From contig OZ253470.1 in NCBI GenBank assembly GCA_965261735.1, positions 4,384,001 to 4,448,000 of the forward strand: a stretch of DNA of 64,000 nucleotides, read 5' to 3'. A model generated the notes under the pieces. It was not told where the DNA came from and did not search any database. It saw nothing but the letters and a program-made list of their open reading frames with translations. How positions within the stretch are numbered: position 1 is the first letter of the stretch; each line of letters begins with the position of its first letter. This stretch comes from Alphaproteobacteria bacterium (GTDB taxonomy: Bacteria > Pseudomonadota > Alphaproteobacteria > SHVV01). Positions 3,667 through 27,830 of this stretch are shown one piece after another. Position numbers and translations under genes: made by a program.

Positions 3667-3672
3667 GCCTGG

Positions 3673-4222: not shown

Positions 4223-4300
4223 ATATGACGTCGTCGTTGAGCGGCCGAGCAAATGAGCGAAGCCCGCTTGTGAAGGTCCGCTTCGATTGGCTTGCTATGC
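4223..4300 (-). other. Degenerate integron attC site
   Basis: Minus strand GCATAGC-aagccaa-TCGAAGCGGACC...GGCCGCTCAA-cgacgac-GTCATAT; upstream TAG stop overlaps the inverse core; both cores are off-consensus. Confidence 0.6.
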
Positions 4301-4570
4301 GTCATTGGCCTGCCTGTGAGCAACGTACTCTTGTATCTGCTGCTCGATCCATTCTTTGGTGATACCGAATGACTCCCAAGCTGTCATCCAGAGCGCATCC
4401 ATTCGCGTATCGACTAACCTGAGGTGTTCCAGGATTTCAATCAGTTCGTCGATCATTTCCCTTCTACCGGACGGAACCATGAGATCGATGTCGTGGATCA
4501 CGAAGAACCGATGAGCGAGATAGTTGCGCTGTTTCAATGCGATGGCGAGATCGGCCTCAAGGTCGCTCGA
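4295..4570 (-). pseudogene. 5-prime truncated cassette gene with HEPN-like RxxxxH motif
   Basis: Frame reads SSDLEADLAIALKQRNYLAHRFF...; helical; ends in the attC. Confidence 0.45.
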
Positions 4571-5115
4571 GGCGGGCCAAGCGGAAATTGTAGCTGACGG
4601 TTATCTCTTCGGAAACCTCATCCGTTTGGAATCTGTGTTGACATGATAAGCCAAGACTCTGTCCCTCACACTTACCTAACTGGTGGTGATTTAGGTGTGG
4701 TATTCTGTTCACCCGGTTATCGTATTGTCGTTCGTATACGCAGCACGGAAGGAAGACACCGGGCCGCTCGGGATGCTGGCTTGGTGGAGTCTATGATTCA
4801 TGTTGCCAGATTAAGCTTCAGAAATGAACGCAATTCTTACTTGCTAGACATCGCATGATCTCTCTGCGATCGAAGCAAATTATTTCTCGCTCCGTCACTG
4901 GCAGACACGAATTGCCTTAGCTGCGCCCGGATGCGCTGAGGTGCGATTTAGCGTCATGGGCTTTGTGCGGCTATCCAGGGACGAGGTGGAGATCGTCGTC
5001 GACCGCTCACCCATGCAGTCAATGGTCGGCGGCTGAACCCTCTACCGAACGGTCCGGGCGAACGTGTCATTGCCCGCAACCTCGCCTATCCGGTTTACAC
5101 CCACACCCACTAGGG

Positions 5116-6213
5116 CTAGTGGATTGATTCCAACGTTTGGAACCCTCTGTTTCGTGCGGCGATGATATGATCGGGGTCGGCTTTCCAGATGAAGGGTTTT
5201 GGGTTTGCGTCATTGTATTCGCGGACAAATCGGTTGATGGCGTCCTGAAGGTCGACGACGGATTGGAAGACGCCGTATTTGAGCCTGCGCCGCGTTAGTT
5301 TGGCGAAGAAGCCCTCGACGGCATTGAGCCACGAGCACGAGGTTGGCGTGAAGTGGAAGGTCCAGCGTGGATGGCGGGCGAGCCAGGCGCGGACCTTGTC
5401 CTTCTTGTGCGCGGCGTAGTTGTCGAGGATGACGTGGACGGCCTTGTCCGTCGGCACCTCGCGCTCGATGCGGTTGAGGAAGCGGATGAACTCCTGATGG
5501 CGGTGGCGCTGCATGTTCTGTGCGATGACCGTACCGTCCAGCACGTTGAGCGCGGCGAACAGCGTCGTCGTGCCATGCCGTTTGTAATCATAGGTCATCG
5601 TACCGGCGCGGCCCTTCTTCATCGGCAAGCCGGGTTGGGTGCGGTCGAGCGCCTGGATCTGTGATTTCTCATCAACCGACAGCACCACGGCATGGGCCGG
5701 CGGATCGACATACAAGCCGACGATATCTGTGAGCTTCTCGGCGAAGGCGGGATCATTGGAGAGCTTGAAGTGCCGCCAGCGGTGCGGGCTGAGGCCATGG
5801 GCCTTCCAGATCGCTTGGACCGTCGACGCCGCGACGCCAGCAACCTTCGCCATCGCGCGCAGCGTCCAGTGGGTCGCCTCGTGCGGCGGCGCTTGCTGGG
5901 TCAGGCGGACGATCTCGGCGACGCGCTCCGGCGGGATCGGCGCTTTGCCAGGCGGACGGGACCTGTCGCGAAGCAAGCCGTTGACACCCTCGTGCATGAA
6001 CCGCTCCTGCCAGCGCCAGACACAGGTCTTGGACTTGCCGGTCTCGGCCATGATCGACGAGTTCCCGAGCCCCTCGTCGCTCTTCAGGATGATCCGCGCC
6101 CGCCAGACATGTTTCTGCGAGCTCTTCGGGTCCGCGACGATAGCTTGCAATCGCTGACGGTCGCCAGACGTGACAGTAAAATAGATGCCGGTGCGCATAG
6201 CACAGACTCGCAT
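5116..6213 (-). CDS. IS630 transposase
   Basis: SVDEKSQIQ, YKRHGTTTL, VILDNYAAHK and SWLNAVE motifs. Confidence 0.95.
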   Translation of the reverse strand: MRVCAMRTGIYFTVTSGDRQRLQAIVADPKSSQKHVWRARIILKSDEGLGNSSIMAETGKSKTCVWRWQERFMHEGVNGLLRDRSRPPGKAPIPPERVAEIVRLTQQAPPHEATHWTLRAMAKVAGVAASTVQAIWKAHGLSPHRWRHFKLSNDPAFAEKLTDIVGLYVDPPAHAVVLSVDEKSQIQALDRTQPGLPMKKGRAGTMTYDYKRHGTTTLFAALNVLDGTVIAQNMQRHRHQEFIRFLNRIEREVPTDKAVHVILDNYAAHKKDKVRAWLARHPRWTFHFTPTSCSWLNAVEGFFAKLTRRRLKYGVFQSVVDLQDAINRFVREYNDANPKPFIWKADPDHIIAARNRGFQTLESIH

Positions 6214-6269
6214 GACACCGCACCATACGGAATCTCAAATCGGACTCTTTCGTTCCGATCAATCCACTA
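5117..6269 (-). mobile_element. IS630-family element inserted at CTAG
   Basis: IRs tagtggattga / tcaatccacta; the empty site gggctagaatggg is visible in the stub at 61383-61514. Confidence 0.9.
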
Positions 6270-6303
6270 GAATGGGCGCAACCCGGATATAGGGGAGCGC
6301 GCC

Positions 6304-7323
6304 ATGGATGTTCTCGACCGCGCCGATCTCCCATTCCCGCATTCGCTACCCGAGTTCCAGCGACTTTTCCCCGATGATGCGGCCTGCGCCGCCTACCTGG
6401 AGAAAGCCCGCTGGGGAGACGGCTTTGCCTGCCCGCACTGCGGCACGGCGGGAGAGCCGTTCCACTTTGAAAACCGCCCTGGCGTCCTGCGCTGCCGCAA
6501 GTGCCGCCAGAACACCGGGCTGACGGTGGGAACAGTGATGGAGCGTAGCCACACTCCGCTGAACGTCTGGTTCTGGGCCGCTTATCTGGTCGCCAGTCAG
6601 ACGCCCGGCATGTCCGCCGTGCAGTTTCAGCGGCAACTTGGTCTTTCGCGCTACGAGACGGCCTTTCAAATTCTCCACAAGCTCCGCTCGGGCATGGTGC
6701 GGCCCAACCAAGATAGGATCGGTGGACAGCCCAAGAACCATGTTGAGGTGGACGAAACCTGGGTTGGCGGGCGAACGCGTGGGGAAGGCCGTGGTGTTCA
6801 CCACAAGGTTCCCGTCTCCTGTGCCATCGAGGTGCGTCATCGAAAGCCGGGCACCAAGCTCGACAACCGGAAAGACGGACGCTATGCCGGACGCGTTCGG
6901 CTCGCCGTCGTGCTCGACCGTAGCGCCGAGTCGCTCTGTGGGTTCGTCGAGAGCACCGTCGCGCCGCGATCGCTGATCGTTACTGACGATTGGAGCGGCT
7001 ATGCTGGCCTCGGGAAGCGCGGCTATGAGCACTTCGCTGTTGCCGAGTGTGGTGATCCAGAGGTTGCCGAGCAATACCTGCCGATCATCCATCTGGTTTT
7101 CGCCAACTTGAAGACGTGGCTGATCGGTATCCACCACGGCGTTAGCCACCAGCACCTACAAGCCTACCTCAACGAGTTCACCTTCCGCTTCAACAGGCGG
7201 TTATACCCGTTCAACGCCTTCCGCTCATTGCTCGGCATCGCGGGCGACACCTCTGCTCCAACCTATGCCGAGCTTTACTCGGGAGAGTGGCGGCACCCTA
7301 CATGTAGCGGTCATCGGCGTTAA
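6304..7323 (+). CDS. IS1595 transposase
   Basis: Zn ribbon CPHC/CRKC, VEVDETW, TDDW and YLNEFTFRFN. Confidence 0.95.
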   Translation: MDVLDRADLPFPHSLPEFQRLFPDDAACAAYLEKARWGDGFACPHCGTAGEPFHFENRPGVLRCRKCRQNTGLTVGTVMERSHTPLNVWFWAAYLVASQTPGMSAVQFQRQLGLSRYETAFQILHKLRSGMVRPNQDRIGGQPKNHVEVDETWVGGRTRGEGRGVHHKVPVSCAIEVRHRKPGTKLDNRKDGRYAGRVRLAVVLDRSAESLCGFVESTVAPRSLIVTDDWSGYAGLGKRGYEHFAVAECGDPEVAEQYLPIIHLVFANLKTWLIGIHHGVSHQHLQAYLNEFTFRFNRRLYPFNAFRSLLGIAGDTSAPTYAELYSGEWRHPTCSGHRR

Positions 7324-7479
7324 CCGGATAGGCAAGCCCGCAACTACCAGGGCTGCCGGCCTGTATTCCTTACATAGCAGCCCCGGCGCCGGCCCACCAA
7401 CGCATTGATTTCGCTTGCCTTGTCGGTTGTAGTGATTCACTCGGAACCAAACCTGTTACTGAAACGGTAGCTGCAAGCT

Positions 7480-7719
7480 TCAGCCTTTGATGTTGCGTGG
7501 ATCATTCCCGTGCGAGTCAGATTGGCTGATCCGACCGTCGCGATTGTGAATCTTGAATTCTGTGCCGGCATTCCGGCTTATCTCCCGGCCACGGTCCACC
7601 GCCTCCTGTTTCGTGTCGAAGAGCCCACTGGCACGTTCGGCACCCCCGCGGCGGACATTCCAGCCCCCGCCGGGATTAGGCACGACGTGATGGGTCCCAG
7701 ATCCTTTGCGCTGTGCCAT
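7480..7719 (-). CDS. DUF2188-family small protein
   Basis: HHVVPNPGGGW...IHNRDGRI...SHGNDP; AGGAGG RBS before the ATG at 7719. Confidence 0.85.
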   Translation of the reverse strand: MAQRKGSGTHHVVPNPGGGWNVRRGGAERASGLFDTKQEAVDRGREISRNAGTEFKIHNRDGRISQSDSHGNDPRNIKG

Positions 7720-7753
7720 ATCGGCCTCCTGCATCGTGTTTGCGATAGTCAAA

Positions 7754-7833
7754 GTTCGTGATCACGAACCGTCGGGCAAGTTAGGTGTTGCAGATATTGT
7801 CTGTCAAGGACTAAAAGTATCGTTATAGCGAAC
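7754..7833. promoter_or_regulatory. Divergent promoter region with two related palindromes (putative operators)
   Basis: Perfect GTTCGTGATCACGAAC at 7754-7769; variant TATCGTTATAGCGAAC at 7818-7833; minus-strand TTGACA at 7802-7807. Confidence 0.55.
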
Positions 7834-7858
7834 CTGGCGATGCAACTGGAGGTCATCC

Positions 7859-8182
7859 GTGCCAACGCCCCTGGGAGAGCGCGTGCGAGAGGTCAGACTG
7901 AAGCGTGGCTTGACCTTGGAAGCTCTGGCCGAGCAGGTCGGATCGAGCAAGAGCTACATGTGGGAGATCGAGAACAAGGCCGTCGCCCGCCCATCGGCCG
8001 AGAAGCTGCACCTGATCGCTGTCGCGCTCGACACGACCGCTGAGTATCTGCTCGCGGCGGATGAGGTGACCGAAGTTGAAGCAGCCGATGTCGCCTTCTT
8101 CCGCAAATATCAGAAGATGAAGCCCAAAGGTAAGGAGCAGCTTCGGGAGATGCTCAAGATATTGGATAACAAGAACGAATGA
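7859..8182 (+). CDS. XRE-family HTH regulator (CapH-like)
   Basis: LTLEALAEQVGSSKSYMWEIE HTH; ATGA overlap with the peptidase gene. Confidence 0.9.
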   Translation: MPTPLGERVREVRLKRGLTLEALAEQVGSSKSYMWEIENKAVARPSAEKLHLIAVALDTTAEYLLAADEVTEVEAADVAFFRKYQKMKPKGKEQLREMLKILDNKNE

Positions 8183-9111
8183 GCCCAAGCGGAGAAAAAT
8201 CGCCCCAACGTGCGGCCAACGACTTGACGGTTCTCCTTCGCACCGTTCTGGGGGAAGACCGGTTCCCCGTGGATGTCGGAGCGCTGGCGCGAGAGGTGTC
8301 GCGCAATCACGAAGATCCGATCACCACGATCCAGGGCGTCGACATTGCCGGCTTCGAAGGCATGCTGCGTGCACGGCGAAGGAAACCCGGCTGGCAAATC
8401 CTCTACAGCACTCAGCCTCGCTATCGTGGACGCGAGCGTTTCACTCTTGCGCACGAATTTGGCCACTACATCCTGCACCGTCGCCGACTGACCGCTGACG
8501 ACTACAAGAACGGCGAACTCGCTGACGATCTCGATTTCGAATGCTTACCTTTGCAGGCCGACCGATGGAGAGCGCCCGAGAAGCAGCGTGAGGAGGAAGC
8601 TGACACGTTCGCCTCATATCTCCTCATGCCGAGCGATGACTATCGGAACCAGGCCGACGGCCACGAAATGACCCGTGACCTGCTCAACCACATCACCCAT
8701 CGCTACGGTGTCTCGCTCTTAGCTGCCGTCCGAAAGTGGATTGAGTTCACCGGCTCGCGGGCCGCGATGGTCGTAGCGCGCGATGGCTTCGCTCTGTGGG
8801 GCCGTGCAAGCGCTTCCGCATACAGGGGCGGTATATTCGTCCCATCGGGTATGGCGCTTCCAGAAGGATCGGTGGCAGCAATGCCGCCCACTTCACGGAA
8901 CGGGAAAGCCAATCGTCCAATTATTCTTCCCGCCGGCGTCTGGACCTTCAGCCGCGGCTCTGAACCGACACGGGAGCTGACCATCTTCTCCACACGGCTC
9001 GGCATTTCCGTCTCCGTACTCCAATTCGACGATGATGCCGGCGACGCTGTGCTCGAAGAGGAAGCCCCTTGGGACAGCTACGACCAGCTCACAACTTGGG
9101 AGCAACGATGA
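8179..9111 (+). CDS. ImmA/IrrE-family Zn metallopeptidase (CapP-like)
   Basis: RFTLAHEFGH (HExxH) and EEEADTFASYLLMP. Confidence 0.9.
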   Translation: MSPSGEKSPQRAANDLTVLLRTVLGEDRFPVDVGALAREVSRNHEDPITTIQGVDIAGFEGMLRARRRKPGWQILYSTQPRYRGRERFTLAHEFGHYILHRRRLTADDYKNGELADDLDFECLPLQADRWRAPEKQREEEADTFASYLLMPSDDYRNQADGHEMTRDLLNHITHRYGVSLLAAVRKWIEFTGSRAAMVVARDGFALWGRASASAYRGGIFVPSGMALPEGSVAAMPPTSRNGKANRPIILPAGVWTFSRGSEPTRELTIFSTRLGISVSVLQFDDDAGDAVLEEEAPWDSYDQLTTWEQR

Positions 9112-9479
9112 TCGACCGGCCATTTCAAATTGGCGCTGTTGGCGAGGTTCTGGAGAGGGCAAAGCAAGCTGCAATTGACTATTACCGCCTGACCGGAAAA
9201 CCACTTGGCATTACCGGCGAAGTCGGCGAATACACCGCTACCCGGCTGCTCGAGCTAACGCTCGCTGATGCAAGGGCTCCCGGATATGACGCGATCGACG
9301 CGCACGGTCGACGCTATCAGATCAAAACCCGAGCATTGTCGCAATCGGCGAGACAGCGCAGCCAGCGTGTGGGCTCGATCAGGCTCGACCACGAATGGGA
9401 CTCGGTTCTCCTCGTACTGTTGGACGAGAAACTTGAGCCACGTGAAATTTGGGAAGCCAATAGACAGTCCGCCGCTGAG
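9108..9479 (+). pseudogene. PD-(D/E)XK-like (DUF6998-like) protein truncated by IS5
   Basis: TGEVGEY...GYDA...YQIKT; ATGA-coupled to the peptidase gene; runs into the IS5 IR at 9480. Confidence 0.6.
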
Positions 9480-10570
9480 GGGCTTTGGTGCATGGACCTG
9501 AGGATTAGTATATCTGGCTCCGCTTCCGTCTTTGAGAGTTTGTCATGCCTTTCAAGTTCCACGCATCGCGTCGCCACCATATCCCCAGAGCCAAGTACCG
9601 GGTCATGAACTGGCCGGATTATGACCGTGGTTTGGTTCGGCGCGGCGACATTCGTTTCTGGATTGATGAGAGCGCCCTGGAGCAATGGGACGCAGCCAAA
9701 CGGCGAACTCCTGGTGGCCAGCGGCGGTTTTCAGAGTTGGCGATTTCCACGACACTGATGCTGGGGATGGTCTTCAGACTGCCGCTGCGCCAGACGGAAG
9801 GCTTTGTGCGTTCCCTCGTGGACTTGATGGGGTGCGATTTGCAGGTGGCGGATCACACCACACTGTCGCGGCGGCGGCGAACGGTGGATGTCGTTGTGGA
9901 AACCAGCACGAACAAATGGCCTACGGATATCGTGCTGGATTCCACGGGCCTGAAATTCTTTGGCGCTGGCGAGTGGGCTCGCGCCAAGCACGGTGAAACG
10001 CGGCGCTCGTGGCGCAAGCTGCATATCTCGGTTGACCCGGCCAGCAGCGAGATCCGGACGCATGAACTGACCGGTGACGACACGGCCGATGCGACGATGG
10101 CGGGACCGCTGGTCGCCGGTTCCGGTGGGATGATCCGGCGCGTGTTTGCCGACGGCGCCTATGACGGGGAGCCCGTGACAAAAGCGATCCGAGAAGCTCG
10201 GCCACCGAATTCACCACCTGAAATCATCATCCCGCCACGCGCCACATCCATTCCTCCCCCGGACACGCCTCATGGCGGATCGGAACGGGAGCACCATGCG
10301 GCGGAGATCGCGTCGAAGGGAAGGATGAACTGGCAGAAACGACAGGGCTACGGATTGAGAGCGCTTGGCGAACCAGCCATGGCTCGCGTCAAGAGGCTCA
10401 ACGGCGGCAAGCTCAACGCTCGCACATTCCAATCCCAACAAACCGAAATCGCCATGCAGATCGACGCACTCAATCGCTCTATCCGTGCGGCGAAACCAAA
10501 CACAATCAGGATCCGCTAACCAACCGGGGAATGGGCGATCACACCATCGCGGCTCCATGCACCAAAGCCC
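9480..10570 (+). mobile_element. IS5-family (IS903-like) element; transposase 9545-10519
   Basis: IRs gggctttggtgcatgga / tccatgcaccaaagccc; LDSTG, WRKLH and ADGAYD motifs. Confidence 0.92.
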
Positions 10571-10589
10571 TAGTGTCATAAAGCAGGAC

Positions 10590-10673
10590 ATGAGCCACCA
10601 CCACCTCCACCTCAACGCGCGCCGCTGGGCTCAGGTCCGGCGGCGCGTCTCCGCGCACGACAGCTGGCGCTAG
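10590..10673 (+). pseudogene. Stub of phage-type HNH endonuclease N-terminus
   Basis: MSHHHLHLNARRWAQVRRRV...DSWR resembles the stub at 14495. Confidence 0.4.
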
Positions 10674-10784
10674 CGGACCCTGCACAAGCGCCTCACGTGG
10701 CACGGCCTGTTCGGGGTTCGGGAGAATGAAAAGGTAGCGTATCGAGGGAAACATGGAACATGTCTACAATATGGATGAAGCCAA

Positions 10785-11444
10785 CATGGAACTAAAAGAC
10801 AGAATCAGAGACAGGGCCGAGGTCTTGTCTCCGCACTTGGCGAGAACGGCGGACAATTGCTGGCAGTGGCCGAGGCGCGCAGCCTCGGGCGCTGCGGGAT
10901 CAAGCTGGTATGGGAGGTCACCGGAGTTACGCTTTCGACTATCGACCAGGGGCTCAGAGAACTCGACGCGACATCGGTGCGGTGGAGGCGGGTGACGGAA
11001 CCACAGCCGAGGCGCCTGGCGGCCCTAGCGGCGCTTGTCGAGCCGGCGACGCGGAGGTGGAGATCCGGAGCGGCCGTTCTTGTGGGTCTCAAAGAGTTGC
11101 CACCATCTTGCGCCCGGCCTGGGGGCACAGGTTTAGTCAGGCTCCCGTTTGCTTGTGGAATAGCTTCCCGGACAACTGGCTACCCGCTGCAGGCAAACGC
11201 GAAGACGCGGGAAAGCGGTGCGCATCCCGACTGCAACAGACAGTTTTCCTATATATGCGTAAGCGGTTGGGGTTTTTTCCGTGCTGCTGGGGCGCCGGAA
11301 ACCTCAGTGGATACCAAAAGAAGCAACGGGTCCGCATCGACGATGCCCAGAGTGAAGACCCTCGACGTCCGATGTGTGGATTTCCGTGGCGAGTGGAGTT
11401 TTATCTTCCTGCCTACACCTCACAACGAACCGGCAAATTCTTGA
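10785..11444 (+). pseudogene. ISAzo13-family transposase remnant
   Basis: AEARSLGRCGI, LVEPATR, GYPLQANAKT...HPDCNRQF, SVDTK and FRGEWSF; frameshifted and internally deleted. Confidence 0.7.
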
Positions 11445-11489
11445 TGAATCCCAACTAGGCACCTAATAACTGACGGAGTAAACGCAGGA

Positions 11490-13138
11490 GTGTGTGCGAC
11501 CTTTTCGTTTTTGGTTCCCACTAAGGAGAAGGTATTGGAAATTAAAATGTCTTCGGGGGGCTCTGTATTTTTCGTCGGCGCCAATGGAGGGGGGAAGACA
11601 CGATTAGCAGTTCATATCGAACGGCAACTGAAACTCAAGGCTCATAGAATTTCGGCGCACAGGGCACTATCGTTGAACCCCGATGTGGCAAAAATAGGCG
11701 AAAAGAAGGCCTTAATGGGTCTACGTACGGGAAATGCTAGTGAAACCTCTAACTTGCAATACAGAGAAGGTCATCGGTGGAACTCTCAGAGTGCAGTGAC
11801 TTTTCTCAATGACTTTGACTTCCTTATTCAGGCGTTGTTCGCTGAACAGTCTAATACATCGCTCGATGCATATAATCATCATAAGTCCGGCGGGAAAAAA
11901 TTAAAGAGAAAATTTCAACTCACAATGTTTGATACGTTGAACAAAATTTGGCATCGATTATTGCCACATAGATCACTTCAGATTACAGGTGACGATATCC
12001 AAGTGTCGATACCCAGACAAACGGGTGCATATAAAGCATCAGAAATGAGTGATGGTGAGAGAGCAATTTTCTATCTGATCGGTCAGGTATTAGTTGCAGA
12101 AAAAGATTCCATGTTGATTATCGATGAGCCTGAATTGCATGTGCACCGCTCCATAGTGGCGAAACTGTGGGATGAATTGGAGGCCGCCCGATCTGATTGT
12201 GCATTCGTGTTCATTACTCATGATCTTGAATTTGCAGCTACGCGTGCTGGGAAGAAATATATTTTGGACGATTATAGACCAGAACCATATTGGGTTATTA
12301 AGGAGGTGCCCGAAGAATCTGAGTTTAATGAGGAACTTATTACACTGATACTTGGAAGTCGTAGGCCAATTCTATTCGTGGAAGGTGATGCTAATAGTTT
12401 GGATATAGCCATATATCGGTGTTGCTATCCCGACTGGACGGTCATACCCCGCGGATCTTGTGCGGACGTAATCCATTCGACTGTCACTATGCGGAGCAAT
12501 GCCTCTTTATCACGGGTGAAGTGTTGTGGAATTGTGGACGCCGACAACTATGACCAAGGGGATAGGGACTACTTAGGTAAGTGCGGTGTCGCAATTCTGC
12601 CAGTGTCGGAGATTGAAAACATTGTGTTGCTCCCAGACGTTGCCCGAGAAATTCTACAATTGGAAGGATATATAGACAAAGAGATTGACAAATCCTTGAA
12701 TATGTTGATCGACGCGGTTTTGAAGAGAGTCAATTCATCAGGAGAAATGGAGAAATTTCGAGTTCGTTATTGCAGGAGACGTATCGATCGAGAATTGAAG
12801 AATAGTGATTTTCAGAAGGCAGCCACCGTTAGCGAGCTTAGAAGGCATATTAAGTCACGAACGGAAACCCTGGATGTACAAGCAATTGCGGATCAGATCA
12901 CAAAGAAATTGCAAACTGCTATAATTGAACGAGATTTGCGAGGAATATTGGCCTATTATGATGATAAGGGTTTTTTTTGGCAATAGCTGCTTCTCATATG
13001 AGAAATTGTCGTAAGGTCGAGTTTATCGAAAGGCTAACCCGAATTTTGCGAAACGGCACCGTTAATCGCTTATCTCGTGCAATCAAGTCGGAGCTGCCAA
13101 CAATACCACCGGTAAATGAAGTGGCAAGTGGCACGTGA
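11490..13138 (+). CDS. Fused ABC-type ATPase + TOPRIM/DUF4435 protein (PARIS-like), frameshifted near the C-terminus
   Basis: GANGGGKT, MSDGER, IIDEPELH, ITHD, then FVEG and GIVDAD; AT-rich; frame breaks at T8 12971-12978 and resumes LAIAASHM... to 13138. Confidence 0.75.
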
Positions 13139-14810: not shown

Positions 14811-15107
14811 ATGACCATCAAATCATCGAGGAAAAAGTCGGGATCGCGCGCCGCGAAGGCCACCACCCGCAAGAACTCAAAGGCGACAGCTCCGAAGCAG
14901 CCGGGGACCACGAAGCTCGCTCTTCTCGTCGCCCATCTCAGTGCCCCGGGCGGCGCGACCATCGCCGAACTCTGTAAGGCAACGGGCTGGCAGCCCCATT
15001 CGGTTCGAGGCGGGCTCGCCGGTGCGCTGCGACGCAAGGGCCACGTCATCCGGTCCGAGAAAGAAGGGGGCCTGCGCCGCTACCGCATCGAGGAACCGGT
15101 GGTATGA
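14811..15107 (+). CDS. DUF3489-family winged-helix protein
   Basis: GATIAELCKATGWQPHSVRG...RYRI; GGAGGAG RBS. Confidence 0.85.
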   Translation: MTIKSSRKKSGSRAAKATTRKNSKATAPKQPGTTKLALLVAHLSAPGGATIAELCKATGWQPHSVRGGLAGALRRKGHVIRSEKEGGLRRYRIEEPVV

Positions 15108-15517
15108 CCGGCGTGGCGCCGCTTGCGGACCAAATCGAGGCGCTTATGCCCCTTCGTCTCGAAGGGCTTCGAGAGGTTTGGCGCAACCGCTATGGTGCCC
15201 CGCCGAAGCTGCGCTCGGCCGAGCTGTTGCGTCATTGTCTGGCCTGGCGGTTGCAGGCAGAGGCTCTCGGCGGTCTCGATCGTGACACACGGCGCCAGCT
15301 CAAGCGCCGCCAGCGGGTCCAGGCAGAAGGTCTTGAGCTCGGGATCGGGACCACGCTGCGGCGTGATTGGCGAGGGCGGATCGTCCAGGTCACGGTCGAA
15401 GAAGAGGGGTTTCGCCATAAGGGCCAACTCTTCAAGAGCCTCTCCGCCGCCGCGACCGCGATCGCCGGCACGCGCTGGAATGGCCCGCGTTTCTTCGGTC
15501 TTCGATCCGCTAAATGA
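15104..15517 (+). CDS. DUF2924-family protein
   Basis: LAWRLQAEALGGL, GTTLRRDW and SLSAAATAIAGTRWNGPRFFGL. Confidence 0.88.
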   Translation: MTGVAPLADQIEALMPLRLEGLREVWRNRYGAPPKLRSAELLRHCLAWRLQAEALGGLDRDTRRQLKRRQRVQAEGLELGIGTTLRRDWRGRIVQVTVEEEGFRHKGQLFKSLSAAATAIAGTRWNGPRFFGLRSAK

Positions 15518-17102
15518 GCCAACCCCGTCTCCACTCGCCCTCTATACGAGGAAGAGCAGCGAGGAAGGCCTTGAGCAGGCGTTCAACTCCCTCGATGCGC
15601 AGCGCGAAGCCTGCGCGGCGTATGTGAAGAGCCAGGCCGGCGAAGGTTGGAGAGCGGTCCCGACCCGCTACGACGATGGCGGCTTCTCCGGCGCATCCAT
15701 GGAGCGGCCGGCGCTCAAGCGGCTTCTCTGCGACATCGAGGCCGGCAAGGTCGACGTCATCGTCGTCTACAAGATTGACCGCCTGACCCGGTCCTTGGCC
15801 GACTTCGCACGCATGATCGAGATCTTCGATCGCCGTCGGGTCAGCTTCGTCAGCGTCACCCAGGCCTTCAACACCACGACCAGCATGGGCCGCCTGACAC
15901 TGAACGTGCTGTTGTCCTTCGCCCAGTTCGAGCGCGAGGTGACGGGCGAGCGCATCCGCGACAAGATCGCGGCCTCCAAGGCCAAGGGCATGTGGATGGG
16001 CGGCATTGTGCCGCTTGGCTACGAGCCGCCTGAGAATGACGCGCGCGCCCTGGCGGTCAACCAGGAAGAAGCCGAGATCGTGCGCACCATCTTCCGAGCC
16101 TATATCGACCTCGGCTCGGTGCACGCGCTGCAGCGATGGCTTGAGGATCGGGGCATCCGTTCGAAGCGGCGCGTGACGCGGGCGGGTCGACTATCCGGCG
16201 GCGGGCCGTTCAGCCGTGGCGCGCTCTTTCAACTGCTGCGCAACAGAGTCTATCGCGGCATGATCGTCCACAAGGGGAGGGCGCATCCCGGCCGGCACCA
16301 GGCCATCATCGATGGCGATCTTTTCGCGGCCGTCCAGGCGCGGCTCGACGCGAACACCCGCCGCCGGGCATCGAATCGCGAGCAAAAGGCGAATGCCCCT
16401 CTGGCCGGGCGCCTCTTCGATGCGGATGGTCGGCCGATGTCGCCGACCTTCTCTTATGGGCGGGGTGGCAGGCTCTATCGCTACTATGTCTCGGCACCGC
16501 TGCAGCAAGGGGCAAGGCGCGATCCATCCGACACAGCCATCCGGCGCATATCCGCCCCACCGCTCGAAGTCGCCCTCGCGACCGTGCTGCGTCGCCTGAT
16601 CGCGGGATGTCCGGACGATCCCATCACGCTTGTTGTCCGCGCCGAGCTCCACGATCAGTCGCTGCACTGCTTGCTGCCGATCGACCGGATCGTCGCGATG
16701 CGCGAGCGCCTCGAGCCCCACGAACGGGTCGAGCCGGATCCGGCCGATGCACGTCTCGCCAGGCTGCATCTTCCCCTTGTCCGGCGTCGCGGCGAGACCT
16801 GGGTTCTTAAGGGCCAAAGTCCGGGACACATGCCGGACCCTGTTCTGGTCAAGGCGCTCCGCTCCGCACACGCCATGCTGCACCACGATGATGCCGGATT
16901 GCCCGTGCTCGTCACAGCGCCGGATACGCCCTATCGCCGCCGCCTCGTCCGCCTGGCCTTTCTGGCGCCGGAGATCCAAAGAGCGATTGTTGAAGGTCGC
17001 CAATCCGCAGGCCTGACACTGGCACAGCTCCTCAAGGGCCCGATGCCGCTCGACTGGCCGCAACAGGCCGTCCGAATCGGCATTGCGGCATCGCTGGAAT
17101 AG
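15514..17102 (+). CDS. Large serine recombinase; apparent 1-bp deletion near codon 8
   Basis: ALYTRKSSEEG, YKIDRLTRS and FAQFERE...ERI; the ATG at 15514 is out of frame by one base (cactcgccctc). Confidence 0.85.
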
Positions 17103-17154
17103 GGATCAGCACCCACATCCCGCTCACTCGACTACGGCAAGACGGGCCGGATTA

Positions 17155-17748
17155 TTTCCTGTTCCCTTCATTTGCTTCCCTGATATCGACTGCCCTTCCC
17201 CCTGTTTTGCAGAAAAGAACCCCTGTTCTGCAGAAAAACAGGAAAGTTCAGAAGTCATTGATAAAAAAGATAATTTCTTCATTTTGGTCGGCAGTTCGCT
17301 ACAATCTCCCTGTTTTGAGGCCGTAATCGCAAAAATTCCCTGTTGCCACCAAACTCACCCTTGCATCGCGCTCGCGGAGACCGCACGCCGGGAAGCCCGG
17401 CAATGGCCGGAAATGCTCCCGCGTTCGGGAGCTCCGAATTGAGATTGACCGCGAAACATGCCCTGTTTTCCGTGGCTTGGCCGCGACATGCGATGAAGAG
17501 ACAGCTGCGCCGGGGTGGCTGGCTGTGGGCGCAGTCTGCTGCGAACCTGTCTCCGCGCCAATTCCCTGATAATCAGGGAAAATACAGGGAATTTTCACGA
17601 AAATGGGCGAATTCAGCCCAGTGATCGGCGGTAACCCACTGGAAACAAGTGGTTTTCCGGTGAATTCCCTACAAAACATAACAGAGAAACTTAAAACCCG
17701 AACAGGGACATTAATGCGAGGATCAGGGAATTTGAAACTGCGAACAGT
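17155..17748. repeat. Two mirrored arrays of short TCCCTGWT-like motifs
   Basis: About a dozen CCCTG/CAGGG-core copies at 17155-17345 and 17560-17748, including the palindrome ttccctgataatcagggaa. Confidence 0.7.
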
Positions 17749-17753
17749 AAGCG

Positions 17754-17890
17754 ATGGAGTGGTCCCCCTCCCGCCGGCATCGCGATGTGCCAGGTTGGCG
17801 GTGTTGTCAACACCGAGATGAGGAAAGGGGCGTCCATGGAACAAGTTATCATCATCGGGATCGATCTGGCGAAGAACAGCTTTCAGCTGA
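17754..17890 (+). mobile_element. IS110-family left end and first codons
   Basis: MEQVIIIGIDLAKNSFQL from 17836. Confidence 0.7.
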
Positions 17891-18075
17891 GCTGGTCCGC
17901 GGTGCGGCCCTGGCGTCCGGCGTGGAGTTTGGCCTCGAGGTGGTTGACCAGGTCGACGACGTTGTAGCAGCGGCCACGGGTGCCCATTCGGATGCAAGCG
18001 CGGGCGATAGCGACGGCGAGATGGGTCTTGCCGGTGCCGGTGCCGCCGGCGAGCTCCTGGATCAGGGGATCGTTG
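17890..18075 (-). pseudogene. IstB fragment
   Basis: GGTGTGKTHLAVAIARACIR...YNVVDLVN. Confidence 0.7.
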
Positions 18076-18316
18076 ACCGGTGAGCGGGTCAACGAGATCG
18101 TCGCCAACCATGTCGGTCACCCTGTTAGTGTGACAACGCCGCCGTTGCTGTCTTCGGGAAGAGACGGGCGGGTTGGAGTGTTATTCGGCGCGCAAGTTTG
18201 CCGCCACAGAATCGCGCGTCATCAAGGTCTTGGCGCGCCGATCGGCGTCGAACCCTCGCGCCGAACAACACCTGGGTAACGCCCGGAGCGCCGCGAAGCC
18301 GGATGACCGAGGCGTC

Positions 18317-20782
18317 TCAGCGTGGTCGCAGGATCAACGTGCCGAGGGCATTTTCCTCTACGCGGACGCGGTCGGTGAGCATCGGCAGATAGCGGCCATC
18401 ACGCCAAGCTTCGGCGAAATCATCATAGTGGACCGAGAGCGGGTTCCCGGACTGGCCGGTGCTCTGGATGAAGACAGAGCGCTCGGGCTCGCCAAGGTCG
18501 TAGACGGCCCGATAGCCGGCGCCATGATCCTGGACGAACGGGTGGTCGGGGTTGCTCACCGTGAAGCCGCCGGCCTTCACCGTCGCCCTCTCGCCCCCGC
18601 TCGGCAGCCAGACCTCGAACCAGGAGCCGATGACGGGGATCTCTCCCAGAACCCGGTGCTTCATCCACACGGCATGGGCCTCGCCCCACCGCCATTCCGC
18701 CAAATCGGTGCCGTAGTGGCGCGCGAGGTTCGCAATCGCGTCGCTGAGCGCGGCGGCAGCAGCGGTGGCGCAACTCTCCCGCTCATCGGTGGTCGCCACG
18801 TCGCACCAGTCGGTCCTCTTGGTGAGCACGCGGTGCATCACCTCGGTACGGATCTCCCAATAGTCCTCGAATGCCTCGCCGAGCTCGTCCGCGAACAGTT
18901 CGCGCATCAGTTCCCTGAGCCACGCCATGTAGATCAACGGCTCGGGACGGTCCCGGCCCATTCGGTGATCCCACGCGGCAAGCAGATCCAAGGCCTGGCT
19001 CGTGGCGTCGTCCGAGGGCGCCGTCAGCTCAAGGAGCACGGGCAGGAGGCGTGCCGCGGCGAGAGAGACCACATCCTGCTGGATGGCGGTAAAGCTCTCG
19101 ACGCCGTGCGCCGGGCGGGCATCGAGCAGGGCTTCGATCCGCCGGGCGCGATAGGGAGGCGTCCAGTCGTCGGTCAGATAGAACGGATAGTCAAGCCCAA
19201 CCAGCCTGTCGTTGGCGGCGACGATGCGGCCCTCGTCAGGATTGTCGGCGCGCGGCAAAGCCTCGAAAGGAATGCGATCCACCCAGTCGTGGGTCCCGGT
19301 CCAGCCCGGCGCGGGCATGTGTCCCTGGCCGGAGGCGCGGATCGGGATCCGCCCGGGCGCGACGTAGCCGATGTTCCCGGACCGGTCTGCGAATACGATG
19401 GTCTGCTGGGGCACGGCCATGTCGCGGAGTGCCGTGACGAAAGCGTCCCGATCCGCGGCGGCGACGGCACGCACCAGCGCCTCGGCGGTTCGGTCGTCAT
19501 CGTCGAGGGCGGTCCAGGAAAAGGCCAGGGTGTGGCCAGCCTCGAGAAACGACCCGCTGTCCTCGATCACGTCGGAGACGACCGGCCCGTGGCGGGTCTC
19601 GCGCACCGTGATCTCCACGGCTTCGGCCCCTGCGACACGGATCGTCTCGGTCCGAACCTCGAAGGGCAGACTGCCGTCGGGCGTCAAATAGCGAGCAGGG
19701 TCGTGCGGGTCGATGCGCTCGATGAACAGGTCCTGGACATCGGGTCCGGTGTTGGTGAAACCCCACGCGAAGTTCCGTGTGCGGCCGAGCACCGGGAAAG
19801 GCAACCCGGGCAGGGTGCCGCCCACGGCCTCGAACTCGGGGGTGCTGATATGGGCAAGATACCAGAGGCTGGGCATCTCGAGCCTCAGATGCGGATCGTT
19901 GGCGAGAAGCGGCTTGCCTGATTCGGTGTGGGCGCCGGAGAGAACCCAGCTGTTGGAGCCGAGCCCGGACACCCTCTGTTTTGGCACGGCCGCGGCGATC
20001 GCCTCGAAGTCGATATCGGCGGGGTCGAAGGATGGCCAACGCGCGGCCGGGGGCGGCGAGGCATCTCCCGGGTAGGGAGCCCAGAGATCCCGCAGCTGGT
20101 CCGGGTCAAGGCGACTGGCGAGCCTGGCACGAAGGAGTTCGTCCTCGAAATTATCGCCGAGGTCCCACGCCATCATCTTGAGCCAGACCAGGCTGTCGGC
20201 GGGCTGCCACGGTTCGGGCTCGTGCCCGAGCACCACGAACTCCAACGGAAGCAACCCGGATCGGGTCTCCAGATAGGCGTTCACACCGGCGGCATAGGCA
20301 TGGTAGATCGCCCGCGTCTCGGGCGAAAGCATCGAGAAGTTGCGCTCGGCGACCCGATAGACGCCCAGCGTCCGGAGGAACCGGTCCGTATTGAGGGAAC
20401 GGTCGCCGAAGATCTCGGAGAGCCGCGCCGCACCGACCCTACGCTGCATTTCCATCTGCCAGAGCCGATCCTGTGCGTGGACGAAGCCCATCGCGAAGGC
20501 GCCGTCCCGCGGCGACTGTGCATAGATGTGCGGGATTGCATGGGTATCGCGGACAATCTCCACGGGAGCGTCGAGCCCGGTCACGCTTTGGGTGCCGTCA
20601 TAAGAAGGCAGTGACAGCCACGAACAGGCGCCGAGGACGACCAGAAGCGCGAATATCGGAAGGGCACCGAGGCCCGCGCGGAGCCGCGGGAGCCGAAAGC
20701 CCCGCCGGATTTCCCTTCCGCCGGCTGTCCCACCAGGGGCGGAAGCGACGGGCAACGAAGGGCCGTGAGGTGGTGTTGTCAC
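18317..20782 (-). CDS. Penicillin acylase family (S45) Ntn hydrolase
   Basis: GFVHAQDRLWQM, GSNSW nucleophile, LANDPHL and GQSGNPLSVHY; N-terminal hydrophobic segment. Confidence 0.93.
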   Translation of the reverse strand: MTTPPHGPSLPVASAPGGTAGGREIRRGFRLPRLRAGLGALPIFALLVVLGACSWLSLPSYDGTQSVTGLDAPVEIVRDTHAIPHIYAQSPRDGAFAMGFVHAQDRLWQMEMQRRVGAARLSEIFGDRSLNTDRFLRTLGVYRVAERNFSMLSPETRAIYHAYAAGVNAYLETRSGLLPLEFVVLGHEPEPWQPADSLVWLKMMAWDLGDNFEDELLRARLASRLDPDQLRDLWAPYPGDASPPPAARWPSFDPADIDFEAIAAAVPKQRVSGLGSNSWVLSGAHTESGKPLLANDPHLRLEMPSLWYLAHISTPEFEAVGGTLPGLPFPVLGRTRNFAWGFTNTGPDVQDLFIERIDPHDPARYLTPDGSLPFEVRTETIRVAGAEAVEITVRETRHGPVVSDVIEDSGSFLEAGHTLAFSWTALDDDDRTAEALVRAVAAADRDAFVTALRDMAVPQQTIVFADRSGNIGYVAPGRIPIRASGQGHMPAPGWTGTHDWVDRIPFEALPRADNPDEGRIVAANDRLVGLDYPFYLTDDWTPPYRARRIEALLDARPAHGVESFTAIQQDVVSLAAARLLPVLLELTAPSDDATSQALDLLAAWDHRMGRDRPEPLIYMAWLRELMRELFADELGEAFEDYWEIRTEVMHRVLTKRTDWCDVATTDERESCATAAAAALSDAIANLARHYGTDLAEWRWGEAHAVWMKHRVLGEIPVIGSWFEVWLPSGGERATVKAGGFTVSNPDHPFVQDHGAGYRAVYDLGEPERSVFIQSTGQSGNPLSVHYDDFAEAWRDGRYLPMLTDRVRVEENALGTLILRPR

Positions 20783-24373: not shown

Positions 24374-27300
24374 TCACGCCGCCCTCGCAAATTGGTCGTT
24401 GACGGCCTGCTGCCAGACATGGGCGTAGACCTCATCCGCGACCGCCCCCTTTTCCTCGTTTGTGAAAGGCGGTGTTGGCAGGCTGGCGTAGTCTTGGTCG
24501 AGGATGAACATCTTGACCTCCGCCTTGGTCTGTTCCTTCTCCCAAAAGCGGTCGAGCTCAGAGAGGCGCGCCTTGATCGTATCCAAGAGGTCCCGGCTCG
24601 CCTGCTTGACTCGCTCTCTTTCGCCTGTGGCGAGATTATCCTTCTTCAACAGGTCGAACAGGGCGAGCTCGTCCTCGCTGAGCCCTTCCTCGACTGCGCG
24701 CTTCTCCTCCGCGTCCAGCTCTTCAACCAAGTCGACCAAACGCTGGAAGGTCTCCTCGATGGTGGCGCGGTCCTTCTCGCGGTTGTAGTCGGCGACGATC
24801 TCTTCGTACTTCTGCTGATAGTCCATGCGCGACGGGTTGCGCGCCAGCATCTCGGCCAGCTTCTGCTCGATGATCTCGCGGATGTCCTGGAGCGCGGTCG
24901 CCTGGTGGCGGACCTTGTTCGCGAACTCGTTACGTAGCTTTTCCATGTCGATCTGGCTGAGGTCAAAGGTCAGCCCCTCGGCCTGGTCGTCACCTGGCGT
25001 CTGCGTGCGGATCGCCTCGTTGACGATCCGGTGCAGCTCCTTGAGCAGCGCCGTCACGTCTGCGGTGTCGCGCCGCTCTGTCAGCTTCTTGTAGATCGCT
25101 TCGATGTTGTCGTGCCGCTCGGCATACGCATAAACGCTGGGCTCCATCAGAAGTGCCTTGAAGCGCGTGAACACCTGCCGTGCCAGCAGCTCGAACCGGC
25201 GCTTCGCCTCATCGCTCGAATAGACGGCCTCGACCGCGTCCTTCAGCCCCTTGATGCGGGCGAAACCGGTCGAGCCGACGAGCGTCGCCGGGTCGAACCC
25301 GAGGTCACGCAAGTGCGCCTCCGTCGCCTCGATGGCCTCGATCAGGGCCTGCACGCGCTCTTCTACCGGTTCGACAATCTCCCCGTCGCCGTCGCCGTCG
25401 CCGTCGTCGCCCAACGCATATTGCGCCAGCGCCTCGCGCAGGCTCTTCAGCATGCCGTTGTAGTCGACGATCAGGCCGAAATCCTTGCCGGGATAGACCC
25501 TGTTCGCCCGCGCGATCGCCTGCATCAGCGTGTGCGCCTTCATCGGCTTGTCGATGTAGAGAGTGGACAGGCATTCCACGTCGAAGCCCGTCATCCACAT
25601 CGCGCACACGATGGCGACACGGAAGGGATGCTCTGGATTCTTGAACGCGCTCTCTACATCGACGCGCTCCCCATCTGTGGTCTCGAAACCCCGCTTCATC
25701 ACGGCGCGATGAGGGATGATGTCGAAGCCCCATCTCGCGAAGTCTTTGACCTCGTTCTGCGCCTCGCTGATGATGATCTCGACGACGGTCTCATCCATCC
25801 AGGCAGCCTGAGCCGCCAGCTTGTCAGCCTCCTCCATAAGCTTGGCGCGGCCGATCTCGTCGCCCGCTGTCGCGGCTTCCGCTCGTTTCGCGTCTGCAGC
25901 CTCGCGGACCTCTGTCGCCTTCTCCTTCCATCTCGGTTGGATTAGCTGGAGCATCCGGGCACACGTGATCTTGTCGATGCAAACCAGCATCGACTTGCCC
26001 GACTCCCACCGGGTCGCGCAGTGTTCGACGAAATCGACGGCGATCTTGTCCAGCCGTTCGTCGGCAGTGATGACTTCGTAATCTTGGCCCAGCAGCTTCT
26101 CGAGCAGCGCCTCCTGATCGGGATTGAGTTCGGCATACGCGATCGTTGCCGCGATGATTTCGTTCAGGTCGGTGCGCGCCACGCCCAGCTTCTCGCCGCG
26201 ATTCTCGTAGACCAGCTTGACGGTCGCGCCGTCCTCCTCGGACCGCTTGAAGTCGTAGCGCGAGACGTAATCGCCGAAGATGCGTTTGGTAAGCTCATCC
26301 TGCTTGAACAGCGGCGTGCCGGTGAAGCCGATGAAAGCCGCGTTCGGCAACGCGAGCCGCATGTTGCGCGCCAGCCGCCCTGCCTGCGTGCGATGCGCCT
26401 CGTCGGAGATCACGATGATGTCGTCGCGCTCGCTGTAGGGCTGCTTCGGGTTCACGTCCTTGTTGAACTTGTGAATCAGGCTGAACACGTAGCGGCGGTT
26501 CTCCTTCAGAAGCCGCTCCAGATCGTGACCGGACGCTGCTCGTGGCGTCTTTTCGTCCGCGACGCCGCAGCCGACGAAGGTCCTGTAGATCTGGCTGCTC
26601 AGATCGTTGCGGTCGGTCATCAGCAGGAAGGTGAAGTTGCCTTCCAGTTTCCGCCGCACCTTCTGGGCGAAGAAGGCCATGGAGTATGACTTGCCGCTGC
26701 CCTGCGTGTGCCAGAACACGCCAAGCCGGCCCAGATCGGGATGCGCCCTCTCGATGATATCGACCGGCCCCTCGGGGATGAACGGCGAGGCCGCTTCGGT
26801 CAAAGCCTGTGCCGGCAGCGTCCTTGCCGAGGCGCGGGACTCGAGCGGCAGTTCGACGACGCGGTGCCTAAGGCGCTGCTCTGGCGGGAACTCCAGCTTC
26901 AGCGCCTCCTGCTTCGCCACCGATGCCACCGCCCTGTTGACTCCCAGCACCTGGTGGTTGCGCGCGATCACCTTCCGCGTCGTGCCGGGCTTGCTGTCAT
27001 CGAACAGGATGAAGTTTTCGACGATATCGAGCAGCCGGTCGTGTGCCAGCATGCCGTTCAGCAGCACTCTGGCCGCCAGGTCGCCACTGTCGGCCTCGTC
27101 GTGCCGTTTCCACTCGGCAAAGTGCTCCCACTCGCTGGTGATGGAGCCGTAGCGGGCGCGGTCGCCGTTCGAGACGATCAGGAAGGCGTTGTGATGGAAG
27201 GCTTGCGCAATGACGCTCTCGTCCATGTAGTCGGAGAGGTTGTTGTCGAAACCCTCGCGGATGTTCTTGTGGACGGCCTTCAGCTCGATGAAGACCAGCG

Positions 27301-27808: not shown

Positions 27809-27830
27809 GTGCCGGTGATCTGCGTCAGCA

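Follow-up and report, generated by a model that had tools for sequence, protein, structure and literature searches.

Large serine integrases rely on a zinc-ribbon and coiled-coil region, together with a protein factor, to set the direction of recombination, and in the textbook members this region sets the choice of partner as well. Because their sites are short and no helpers are needed, these enzymes are valued as genome-engineering tools. The phage attachment site (attP) of lambda has another layout, with a core and P and P' arms that carry arm-type, Xis and integration host factor (IHF) sites. Among described serine systems, the attachment sites of Bxb1 are given as under 50 bp (PMC1470463), and the Wolbachia WO region is described with a recombinase directly downstream of a DUF2924 protein (PMC10299305). 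Paracoccus phage phiPam-6, a functional alphaproteobacterial phage, is reported with a serine recombinase, a site at tRNA-Met and 17-bp direct repeats (PMC3925955); its serine-family recombinase and tRNA-Met site are also given in PMC6536676, whose account names no identified site for most other Paracoccus prophages with serine recombinases. Here we analyze a 64,000-nucleotide stretch of an Alphaproteobacteria bacterium genome (contig OZ253470.1, positions 4,384,001 to 4,448,000; hereafter the window, whose own numbering is used throughout), in which an operon encoding a DUF3489 protein, a DUF2924 protein and a serine recombinase is followed by two arrays of a short repeated motif. Comparison with related loci showed these arrays to be the conserved arms of a predicted attachment site, belonging to a serine-recombinase element that targets tRNA-Ser.

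The repeated arm motif, aaaTTCCCTGTT, is present in eight copies in the arm on the recombinase side (the P arm) and in six copies in the arm on the far side of the core (the P' arm); these sites are numbered S1 to S14 in Table 1. The clustering of CCCTG-core motifs that an earlier sequence-only reading of this DNA had pointed out was borne out by counting. All seven exact matches to TCCCTGWT in the 64 kb lie within 17177–17729 (shuffled sequences had a mean of 3.04 per whole window, with seven or more in 3 of 100), and CCCTGWT matched 25 times against 12.5 expected in the window, a number reached by none of 100 shuffles, with 10 of the 25 matches falling in 17178–17728. A weight matrix of 17 columns, built from 40 sites, placed 14 sites in 17157–17728, as compared to 11 in the remaining 63.4 kb. 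Seven of the eight sites left of the core are forward and five of the six right of it are reverse, and the first five are spaced by 21, 22, 21 and 22 bp, the fifth being inverted. The same reading had described a mostly forward left cluster with copies 21–22 bp apart and a mostly reverse right cluster that is roughly its inverted copy, and these descriptions hold: the left-arm profile matches 17756–17570 on the minus strand (nhmmer, E = 0.0079) and a related locus, L074 (E = 0.0032), and the right-arm profile matches the left arms of three relatives (L005, L004 and L010) in reverse, with nhmmer E values of 2e-6 to 2e-4. Since the arm profiles match each other in reverse, the mirror image of the two arrays is real.

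The stretch after the recombinase stop has a lower GC content than its surroundings, with 0.43 in the left array (17157–17345) and 0.45 in the right array, and 0.62–0.70 between them. No Rfam match was found in 16900–18000 at E ≤ 1, and a promoter and terminator scan returned one weak promoter-like and two terminator-like sites, near the shuffle expectation. In the plasmid collection, 17103–17760 had no DNA match (blastn), and the C-terminal half of the recombinase had one weak match.

Conservation was assessed by scanning one genome per species with an alignment of the recombinase and 19 homologues (A1). At least 8000 protein matches were scored, at least 596 of 603 genome stretches were confirmed, and 79 loci were taken, the best at 66% identity among the matches listed; the counts omit the flanks of relatives with 87–96% identity that were known from the protein search. 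The left array stands directly after the recombinase stop in nine of the ten closest relatives (53–66% identity, among the matches listed). Loci L001 to L008 and L010 carry 4–8 matrix sites per 450 bp after the recombinase, against 0.09 expected; these include four loci that were not in the matrix training (L002, L006, L008 and L010), with 7, 4, 5 and 5 sites, respectively. In L009 the layout is retained, with the motif varied to TCCCTGC. In 70 of the 80 sequences examined the 450-bp zone holds 0–2 matrix sites, and outside the arms the motif is at background, with 0.2 matrix sites per kb over 1.25 Mb of related genomes. The sequence-only reading had named lack of conservation beside homologous operons, or motif counts expected by chance, as grounds for giving it up; the arrays are conserved beside homologous operons and exceed chance, so that this test failed to refute it.

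Table 1. Features of the operon, the predicted attachment site and its right flank, in window coordinates
Feature	Position	Strand	Details and evidence
DUF3489 gene, 98 aa, first gene of the operon	14811..15107	+	Pfam PF11994, E 1.8e-21
DUF2924 gene, 137 aa	15104..15517	+	Pfam PF11149, E 4.3e-38
Serine recombinase gene	15514..17102	+	Pfam Resolvase and Recombinase domains
P arm, recombinase side, 395 bp, sites S1-S8	17103..17497	+	Alignment A2 with 8 relatives
S1-S4 forward and S5 inverted	17150..17250	+	Cores 17157, 17178, 17200, 17221; S5 17243; weight matrix
IHF-like sequence GAAGTCATTGATA (minus-strand reading TATCAATGACTTC)	17251..17263	-	TAA and TGA columns invariant in A2
S6 and S7, forward, 30 bp apart	17301..17347	+	Cores 17308, 17338; weight matrix
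Conserved AAACTCACCC (17351-17360) and GGAGACC (17376-17382)	17351..17382	+	Conserved blocks in A2
S8, forward	17454..17470	+	Core 17461, 37 bp before the core GAGAC; weight matrix
Predicted crossover core, 56 bp, imperfect inverted repeat	17498..17553	.	GAGAC...TGGCTGGCTG...GCAGTC...GTCTC
P' arm, far side, about 195 bp	17554..17748	-	Alignment A4; weight matrix
S9, forward site in the P' arm, palindrome with S10	17564	+	Weight matrix
S10, S11, S12 (weak), S13, S14, reverse sites	17578, 17589, 17686, 17707, 17728	-	Weight matrix
IstB (IS21 helper ATPase) fragment	17883..18107	-	Pfam IstB_IS21, E 1.6e-12, profile positions 97-151 of 238 only

The P arm has a fixed internal order across the relatives in A2: phased forward sites, an inverted site, a gap containing TAA-N5-TGA, two forward sites, AAACTCACCC, GGAGACC, a variable GC-rich stretch, the eighth site, and AGAGAC...GGGGTGGCTGGCG. 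A profile of this arm found the training loci with E values of 1.6e-99 to 3.4e-124, and L009 with 1.3e-24 (nhmmer). The cores of S1–S4 read CCTGTT or CCCTGWT, and the arrangement of three to four forward sites followed by one inverted site is also seen in L001, L003, L004 and L007; in L005 the forward sites number two. The conserved TAA-N5-TGA at 17251–17263 fits the IHF consensus, WATCAANNNNTTR, and is accordingly called IHF-like. The S6–S7 pair is spaced 30–32 bp in six relatives (L001, L002, L003, L006, L007 and L008), and S7 is followed by the first GAGAC after 39–40 bp; in loci with an additional inverted site this distance is 50–51 bp, longer by roughly one turn of the helix. This first GAGAC lies in the GGAGACC block, which may be an extra recombinase half-site judging by its sequence; it stands 120–124 bp before the GAGAC of the core in nine of nine loci, and the intervening sequence varies. 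Further on, L003, L007 and L008 share a site at the S8 position, the same 37 bp before the core GAGAC. What had been read as a GC-rich spacer between the two arrays is thus no spacer, as it holds the conserved eighth site, the conserved GAGAC motif and the 56-bp inverted-repeat core.

The core at 17498–17553 has the form known from large serine recombinases, two inverted half-sites over about 40–50 bp. CCCTGTT is absent from these 56 bp, and only the extra GAGAC at 17377–17381 resembles the outer motif of the core. The earlier reading held that serine integrase sites of about 50 bp do not explain the region; a core of normal size is present, and the arrays are its flanking arms. In five relatives (L002, L003, L007, L008 and L009) similarity among the loci stops after GGGGTGGCTGGCG, and the 3' end of a minus-strand tRNA-Ser gene follows. 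L001 and L005 carry a short tRNA-Ser 3' remnant after the core and then an island with a tyrosine integrase, with an intact tRNA-Ser 7.9 kb further on in L005. Across the family, a minus-strand tRNA gene lies 166–451 bp after the recombinase match in 29 of the 79 loci, the types at these junctions being Ser, Gln, Leu, Met, Cys, Phe, Tyr, Lys or Arg (tRNA-Met is the neighbour in L041 and L043). In the window, the right half of the core resembles a tRNA-Ser 3' end. Because similarity ends at a core that abuts tRNA genes, the recombinase family appears to integrate at the 3' ends of tRNA genes, which would place the left array between the recombinase gene and the crossover point.

Two further observations concern these junctions. 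Long direct repeats of the tRNA junction, for which we searched as markers of distal element ends, were found only in L032, as tandem remnants: positions 2100–2370 of this locus hold a second copy of the P arm followed by an approximately 30-nt tRNA-Gln 3' fragment. The intact junction is 9.5 kb downstream of this copy, and the arrangement points to insertions in tandem or in succession at a single tRNA gene. In addition, a GAGAC-N35-41-GTCTC pair (45–51 bp overall) stands between the recombinase gene and the tRNA junction, 1–158 bp after the end of the match, in 14 of the 79 loci, against about 2–3 by chance on a rough estimate (L015, L016, L019–L022, L024, L034, L035, L055, L057, L068, L077 and L078). 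The recombinases of these loci are 44–47% identical to that of the window (L020, 60% over a partial match), and by their sequence the pairs could be accessory recombinase-binding sites.

The P' arm aligns with the far-side arms of four loci, L044, L074, L038 and L006 (A4; nhmmer E values of about 6e-56 to 6.4e-36), in which the core is kept with GCAGTC and GTCTC invariant. In each of them GCAGTC...GAACCGGTCTC is followed by reverse CCCTGTT-type sites at matching positions. L006 belongs to the close clade, and the recombinases of L044, L074 and L038 are about 45% identical over the full length (45–58% in the best segment); for these three loci the nhmmer E values are 1e-36 to 1e-46. Because the right array matches the far-side arm of four loci whose cores are unrecombined, the window holds an attP-like arrangement of arm, core and arm. 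It would be an unrecombined P-core-P' site, which may be an attP proper or may mark the point where two elements meet in tandem. The proposal of a mobile-element end structure survives in that the arrays stand at an element end; they are the two arms of one unrecombined attP-like site and not the two ends of an integrated element. Among the far-side arms, L006 has five reverse CCTGAT sites at 12215–12265 that form an 11-bp tandem (ATCAGGCTCAT), and in L021 the CCCTGTT motif is replaced at 11900–12035 by ACGGGAAA, which occurs three times.

The three coupled genes of the operon are as first described, DUF3489, DUF2924 and serine recombinase, with Pfam assignments for all three and ATGA overlaps at 15104–15107 and 15514–15517, so that the DUF2924 gene overlaps both of its neighbours; the recombinase frame is broken, as detailed below. 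DUF2924 is encoded upstream of the recombinase in 76 of the 79 loci, the other three having 110 bp or less of upstream DNA. DUF3489 is found upstream in 48 of the 79 (tblastn) and is absent from L007 and L010. An open frame antisense to the DUF3489 gene is common to L001–L006 and L009 (for example L005 9160–9519); a divergent small open reading frame that we had considered beside the operon proved to be this antisense frame and was rejected, and the frame is taken to be a by-product of high GC content and codon bias, and no gene.

The recombinase has the catalytic domain of large serine recombinases, with the Pfam Resolvase domain at residues 10–162 (E = 1.7e-38) and the catalytic domain of TP901-1 integrase among its PDB matches (E = 1.8e-25), and this is followed by the Recombinase domain PF07508 at residues 186–281 (E = 1.7e-16). 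The top Foldseek matches of its AlphaFold2 model (predicted local distance difference test, pLDDT, of 78.6) are the Bxb1, SPbeta and PhiC31 integrases. The last 240 amino acids had no Pfam family even at E ≤ 10, the C-terminus gave no informative PDB match, and precomputed Pfam annotations of 120 homologues contained no zinc-ribbon family. In the model, beta hairpins are placed at 309–328 and all helices beyond residue 300 are at most 15 residues long. The protein as modelled therefore does not detectably carry a zinc ribbon into which a coiled coil is inserted, although it may have a degenerate ribbon that lacks cysteines. In the phage collection the recombinase has only distant relatives: the best full-length match is Wolbachia phage WO, with 33% identity over 94% of the protein, AcaML1 matches at 52% over the N-terminal 58%, and no Paracoccus phage is among the matches listed.

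In the AlphaFold2 model of DUF2924 (pLDDT 85.5), the N-terminal half consists of four helices and the C-terminal part of a small beta domain and one helix, and weak, sub-threshold matches to the RAMA domain, seen in 26 of 61 members, map to the beta domain. Its fold had no significant PDB match (best Foldseek E = 0.23), with an MPND–DNA complex as a low-probability structural match (probability 0.47); its profile search against PDB was empty and the protein atlas gave no usable match. A DUF3489 profile built from 40 homologues weakly matches MecI/BlaI winged-helix repressors in PDB (E = 0.027), and the protein may accordingly be of the winged-helix type. We treat these protein-level similarities, for the recombinase, DUF2924 and DUF3489 alike, as leads and not as proof.

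On balance we favour, at somewhat better than even probability, a reading in which the approximately 650 bp after the recombinase gene are the attP-type site of an alphaproteobacterial phage-like element, whose phased sites would be occupied by accessory proteins and give the recombination complex its shape. Cleavage and strand exchange by the serine recombinase would take place in the 56-bp core, which would recombine at a tRNA-Ser 3' end upon integration; the P arm would then stay by the recombinase gene and the P' arm would move to the other end of the element. The motif copies, phased at two helical turns and pointing to the core from both sides, would be bound cooperatively by an element-encoded protein that bends or wraps both arms. 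The recombinase would thus act inside a defined nucleoprotein complex that distinguishes attP from attL and attR, the sites formed on integration, and it is this arm complex that would set direction and partner choice. In the window itself, the right-hand neighbour of the site would have been destroyed by insertion sequences.

We infer that the arms are accessory-protein sites with an influence on the form of the complex because of the mirror symmetry about the core, the two-turn phasing, the whole-turn length differences, the fixed loop of about 122 bp, the IHF-like sequence and the missing zinc-ribbon and coiled-coil region. DUF2924 is the likeliest arm binder and a candidate subunit of the complex, because it is always present with the recombinase; the unclassified C-terminal region of the recombinase is the alternative. 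The small DUF proteins had been proposed as possible binders of the arrays, and for DUF3489 this is unlikely because the arrays of L007 and L010 are full without the gene.

A more specific version, which we put forward tentatively and consider clearly less probable, is that of a two-part integrase. Here the zinc-ribbon and coiled-coil device would have been lost, and direction and partner choice would fall to DUF2924 as a separately encoded reader, which would polymerise on the phased CCCTGTT sites of both arms together with IHF, forming a lambda-like intasome on a serine core; this would be a convergent solution in a large, so far undescribed family of tRNA-targeting, alphaproteobacterial phage-like elements. 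As a bolder extension, the RAMA-like domain of DUF2924 might sense adenine methylation by the element's ParB-methylase, linking the state of the arms to excision.

Several points weigh against the favoured reading. The window copy is probably inactive, because its own recombinase gene is broken. The P arms of relatives at 43–49% identity are about 200 bp long and have no CCCTGTT arrays, so that the family can evidently work without P-arm arrays, and in L044, L074 and L038 the arrays are on the P' side only. Unrecombined cores occur in megabase-sized chromosomal contigs (L006, L074 and L016), where they can be explained only by tandem elements or mixed assemblies. None of the loci covered an integrated close-clade element from end to end, so that the P' arm was never observed at an attL proper, and the upstream sequence of L005–L009, searched over at most 10 kb, showed no reverse arrays. 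As for DUF2924, its similarity to RAMA reaches about 16 bits, below the Pfam cut-off of 35.2, and was not seen at E ≤ 0.05 in the re-scanned close-clade proteins of L001, L003 and L007; solved RAMA domains, moreover, are described as contacting DNA mainly via the backbone, with no base specificity (PMC9963953).

The gene content of the family bears on what else the arrays might do. Its neighbours are phage-like: a fusion of ParB_N and an N6/N4 methylase, DUF5681, and a large terminase. Where these genes lie with respect to the arrays depends on the clade; the placement of the arrays with respect to the core is constant. In L041, positions 2910–11800 hold a possible element of about 8.6 kb with the ParB-methylase, DUF5681, the large terminase and about 3 kb of genes without assignment, continuing into DUF3489, DUF2924 and the recombinase beside tRNA-Met, with GACTGGC at both putative ends. 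If this element is real, some family members are satellite-sized and not full prophages.

With such neighbours, the arrays might serve a packaging or late-gene module, as small-terminase repeats of the cosB or pac kind or as operators of the ParB-methylase–DUF5681–terminase operon, and would stand beside the core only because that operon starts at the element end. In L038 and L074 a ParB_N/N6_N4 methylase gene does begin 165–540 bp beyond the P' arrays, with DUF5681 and terminase after it, where such a role is possible and counts against the recombination reading; those of L044 precede TetR-like, DUF5681-like and terminase-like genes, methylase and Terminase_6C genes follow the P' arm in L006, and repeats with an IHF site resemble lambda cosB. 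We nevertheless consider this unlikely. In L005, L006 and L007 the ParB-methylase and DUF5681 genes lie across the recombinase operon, pointing away and at least 2.4 kb from the P-arm array, and regardless of this the close-clade array is unchanged in its placement and spacing with respect to the core. It is this core, and not any gene start, that forms the centre of symmetry of the arrays, and the window has the arrays with neither a ParB-methylase nor a terminase gene.

To an equally small degree we credit the possibility that an excised circle would use the P arm for replication, as an origin of the iteron type, or for partition; its parts would be four direct repeats at 21–22 bp, an inverted copy and an AT-rich stretch with an IHF site. 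Iteron origins have repeats of about 22 bp beside an AT-rich segment, and the direct repeats at 21–22 bp, next to a segment of lower GC content (0.43), have the repeat pattern of such origins; many of these elements also encode ParB_N-domain proteins. Yet no DnaA box with one mismatch or less occurs in 17103–17760, and the conserved module, consisting only of DUF3489, DUF2924 and the recombinase, has no initiator or partition ATPase gene. The ParB_N domain is here fused to a methylase that varies in its position relative to the arrays, and an origin would leave unexplained both the mirrored second array and the fixed distances of 120–124 bp and 37 bp to the core. Of the multi-site nucleoprotein platform that the sequence-only reading envisaged, with a recombination enhancer, an origin or a centromere-like site as its possible roles, the multi-protein platform fits the conserved phasing, and an origin or centromere finds no evidence, the module lacking a DnaA box and any rep or par gene.

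Less probable again is that a host nucleoid or regulatory protein binds the motif and silences or insulates the element ends, with no direct role in recombination. A CCCTGTT core is common to elements whose recombinases are only about 45% identical (L044, L074 and L038 as compared to the window), as a host factor would predict, but the motif varies by lineage, with CCTGTTA in L002 and L006, TCCCTGC in L009 and ACGGGAAA in L021, and it is at background outside the arms. The different repeat in the same place in L021 fits a co-evolving, element-encoded reader better than a universal host factor, and we know of no alphaproteobacterial factor with a CCCTGTT site. Finally, a separate miniature Tn7- or Mu-like transposon with TGT...ACA termini that landed after the operon, as the outermost bases TGTTC...GAACA and a TTCCCTGAT 17 bases in from each terminus might suggest, is very improbable and was rejected, as the array is fixed beside the operon in nine of ten close relatives, the flanks (tttcc and gtaag) show no target duplication, similarity in relatives continues into the core and tRNA junction, a further copy occurs neither elsewhere in the window nor in 1.25 Mb of loci, and the plasmid collection yielded no match.

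The attachment site of the window, which we still read as attP-type, belongs to a decayed module. The coupled ATG at 15514 begins MSQPRLH, the first seven residues of two homologues with 95–96% identity (P0001 and P0002), after which the reading departs from the frame of the homologues and meets a stop after 37 codons (15514–15625); the body of the recombinase is open in another frame from 15123 to 17102, with an in-frame ATG at 15480. By its sequence, the gene looks frameshifted. To the right of the P' arm (17748–18107), insertion-sequence debris starts within about 140 bp of the last site. The IstB fragment there matches the istB of plasmid records (blastn), is outside the attachment system, and marks the debris that cut off whatever stood to the right of the P' arm. 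A short frame with stops at 17837 resembles, by eye, the start of an IS110-family transposase, and beyond the fragment lies a penicillin amidase gene (18317–20782). With the recombinase frameshifted and the right side lost to insertion sequences, the module is a decayed remnant.

The window contains no tRNA gene, and its tyrosine integrases are P4-like and distant from the operon (295–1983 and 46787–47962). Its first approximately 48 kb, with many transposases, have the look of an island in which defence genes and insertion sequences abound, and the decayed module lies inside it. At 11490–12986 (plus strand), 1.8 kb upstream of the operon, a 498-aa protein with Pfam AAA_21 and DUF4435 domains is assigned to the PARIS anti-phage system by its match to the model for fused AriAB (E = 1.4e-133), and its gene may be cargo of the same decayed element. 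A CapP-like IrrE-family protease is encoded at 8179–9111 (plus strand), and a complete-looking type I restriction-modification set (R, S and M) at 24374–31135 (minus strand). An HmaA-like SNF2 helicase at 37528–41448 (E = 0) is missing the first ~306 profile positions and adjoins a Mutator-family transposase (40222–41448); an insertion sequence seems to have truncated this defence gene.

The recombinase family is widespread, and one of its clades has about 600 bp of conserved, phased arm repeats. If these arms control the reaction, they would represent a natural, architecture-based control grafted onto an enzyme of the large serine type, would give DUF2924 and DUF3489 a job, and would offer island-finding software a new signature of element ends; if their role is in replication or packaging, an explanation is still needed for why they are so strictly linked to the core. 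In the literature covered by our searches, from which subscription journals were outside, we found no account of arm repeats at a serine-integrase site, nor of a function for DUF2924 or DUF3489.

Among described systems, the large serine integrases (Bxb1, PhiC31, SPbeta SprA and TP901-1) share with the window the catalytic and Recombinase domains, being its best structural matches, and a core of about 50 bp that is an imperfect inverted repeat; the window gene likewise stands at the end of a phage-like element. Unlike in these systems, conserved phased repeats of about 395 and 195 bp flank the core, the target is a tRNA gene, a DUF2924 gene is coupled to that of the recombinase, and no zinc-ribbon family was detected and no long helices were predicted. 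On the sequence comparisons, the conserved phased arms would argue against core-only recombination in the close clade. Phage phiPam-6 is set apart by its description, with 17-bp repeats and no arm repeats in the accounts cited above, and the Wolbachia phage WO module, compared by its genes, shares the order of DUF2924 and recombinase and is distant in sequence. Tn7- and Mu-like ends are associated with target duplication and independent mobility, neither of which was found for the window arrays.

The layout matches that of lambda-type attP sites: a core lies between arms with oriented short sites, here predicted protein sites, a putative IHF-like sequence stands between clusters, integration would take place at tRNA 3' ends, and the arms would separate into attL and attR. 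The enzyme here, however, is a serine recombinase and not a tyrosine recombinase with an arm-binding domain; any reader of the arms would be a separate small protein or the C-terminal region, rather than an N-terminal integrase domain, and the number of arm sites and their 21–22 bp phasing differ as well. The res sites of Tn3/gamma-delta and Sin, and the enhancer of the invertases, similarly combine a serine recombinase with accessory DNA that controls the outcome, and by analogy with res accessory sites the extra GAGAC 120–124 bp from the core could be an accessory recombinase site. However, accessory sites in res repeat the recombinase motif, whereas CCCTGTT is absent from the core, and res acts from one side in intramolecular resolution, whereas here arms flank the core on both sides and the reaction would be chromosomal integration. 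For the serine integrase class, this is an unusually elaborate attachment site.

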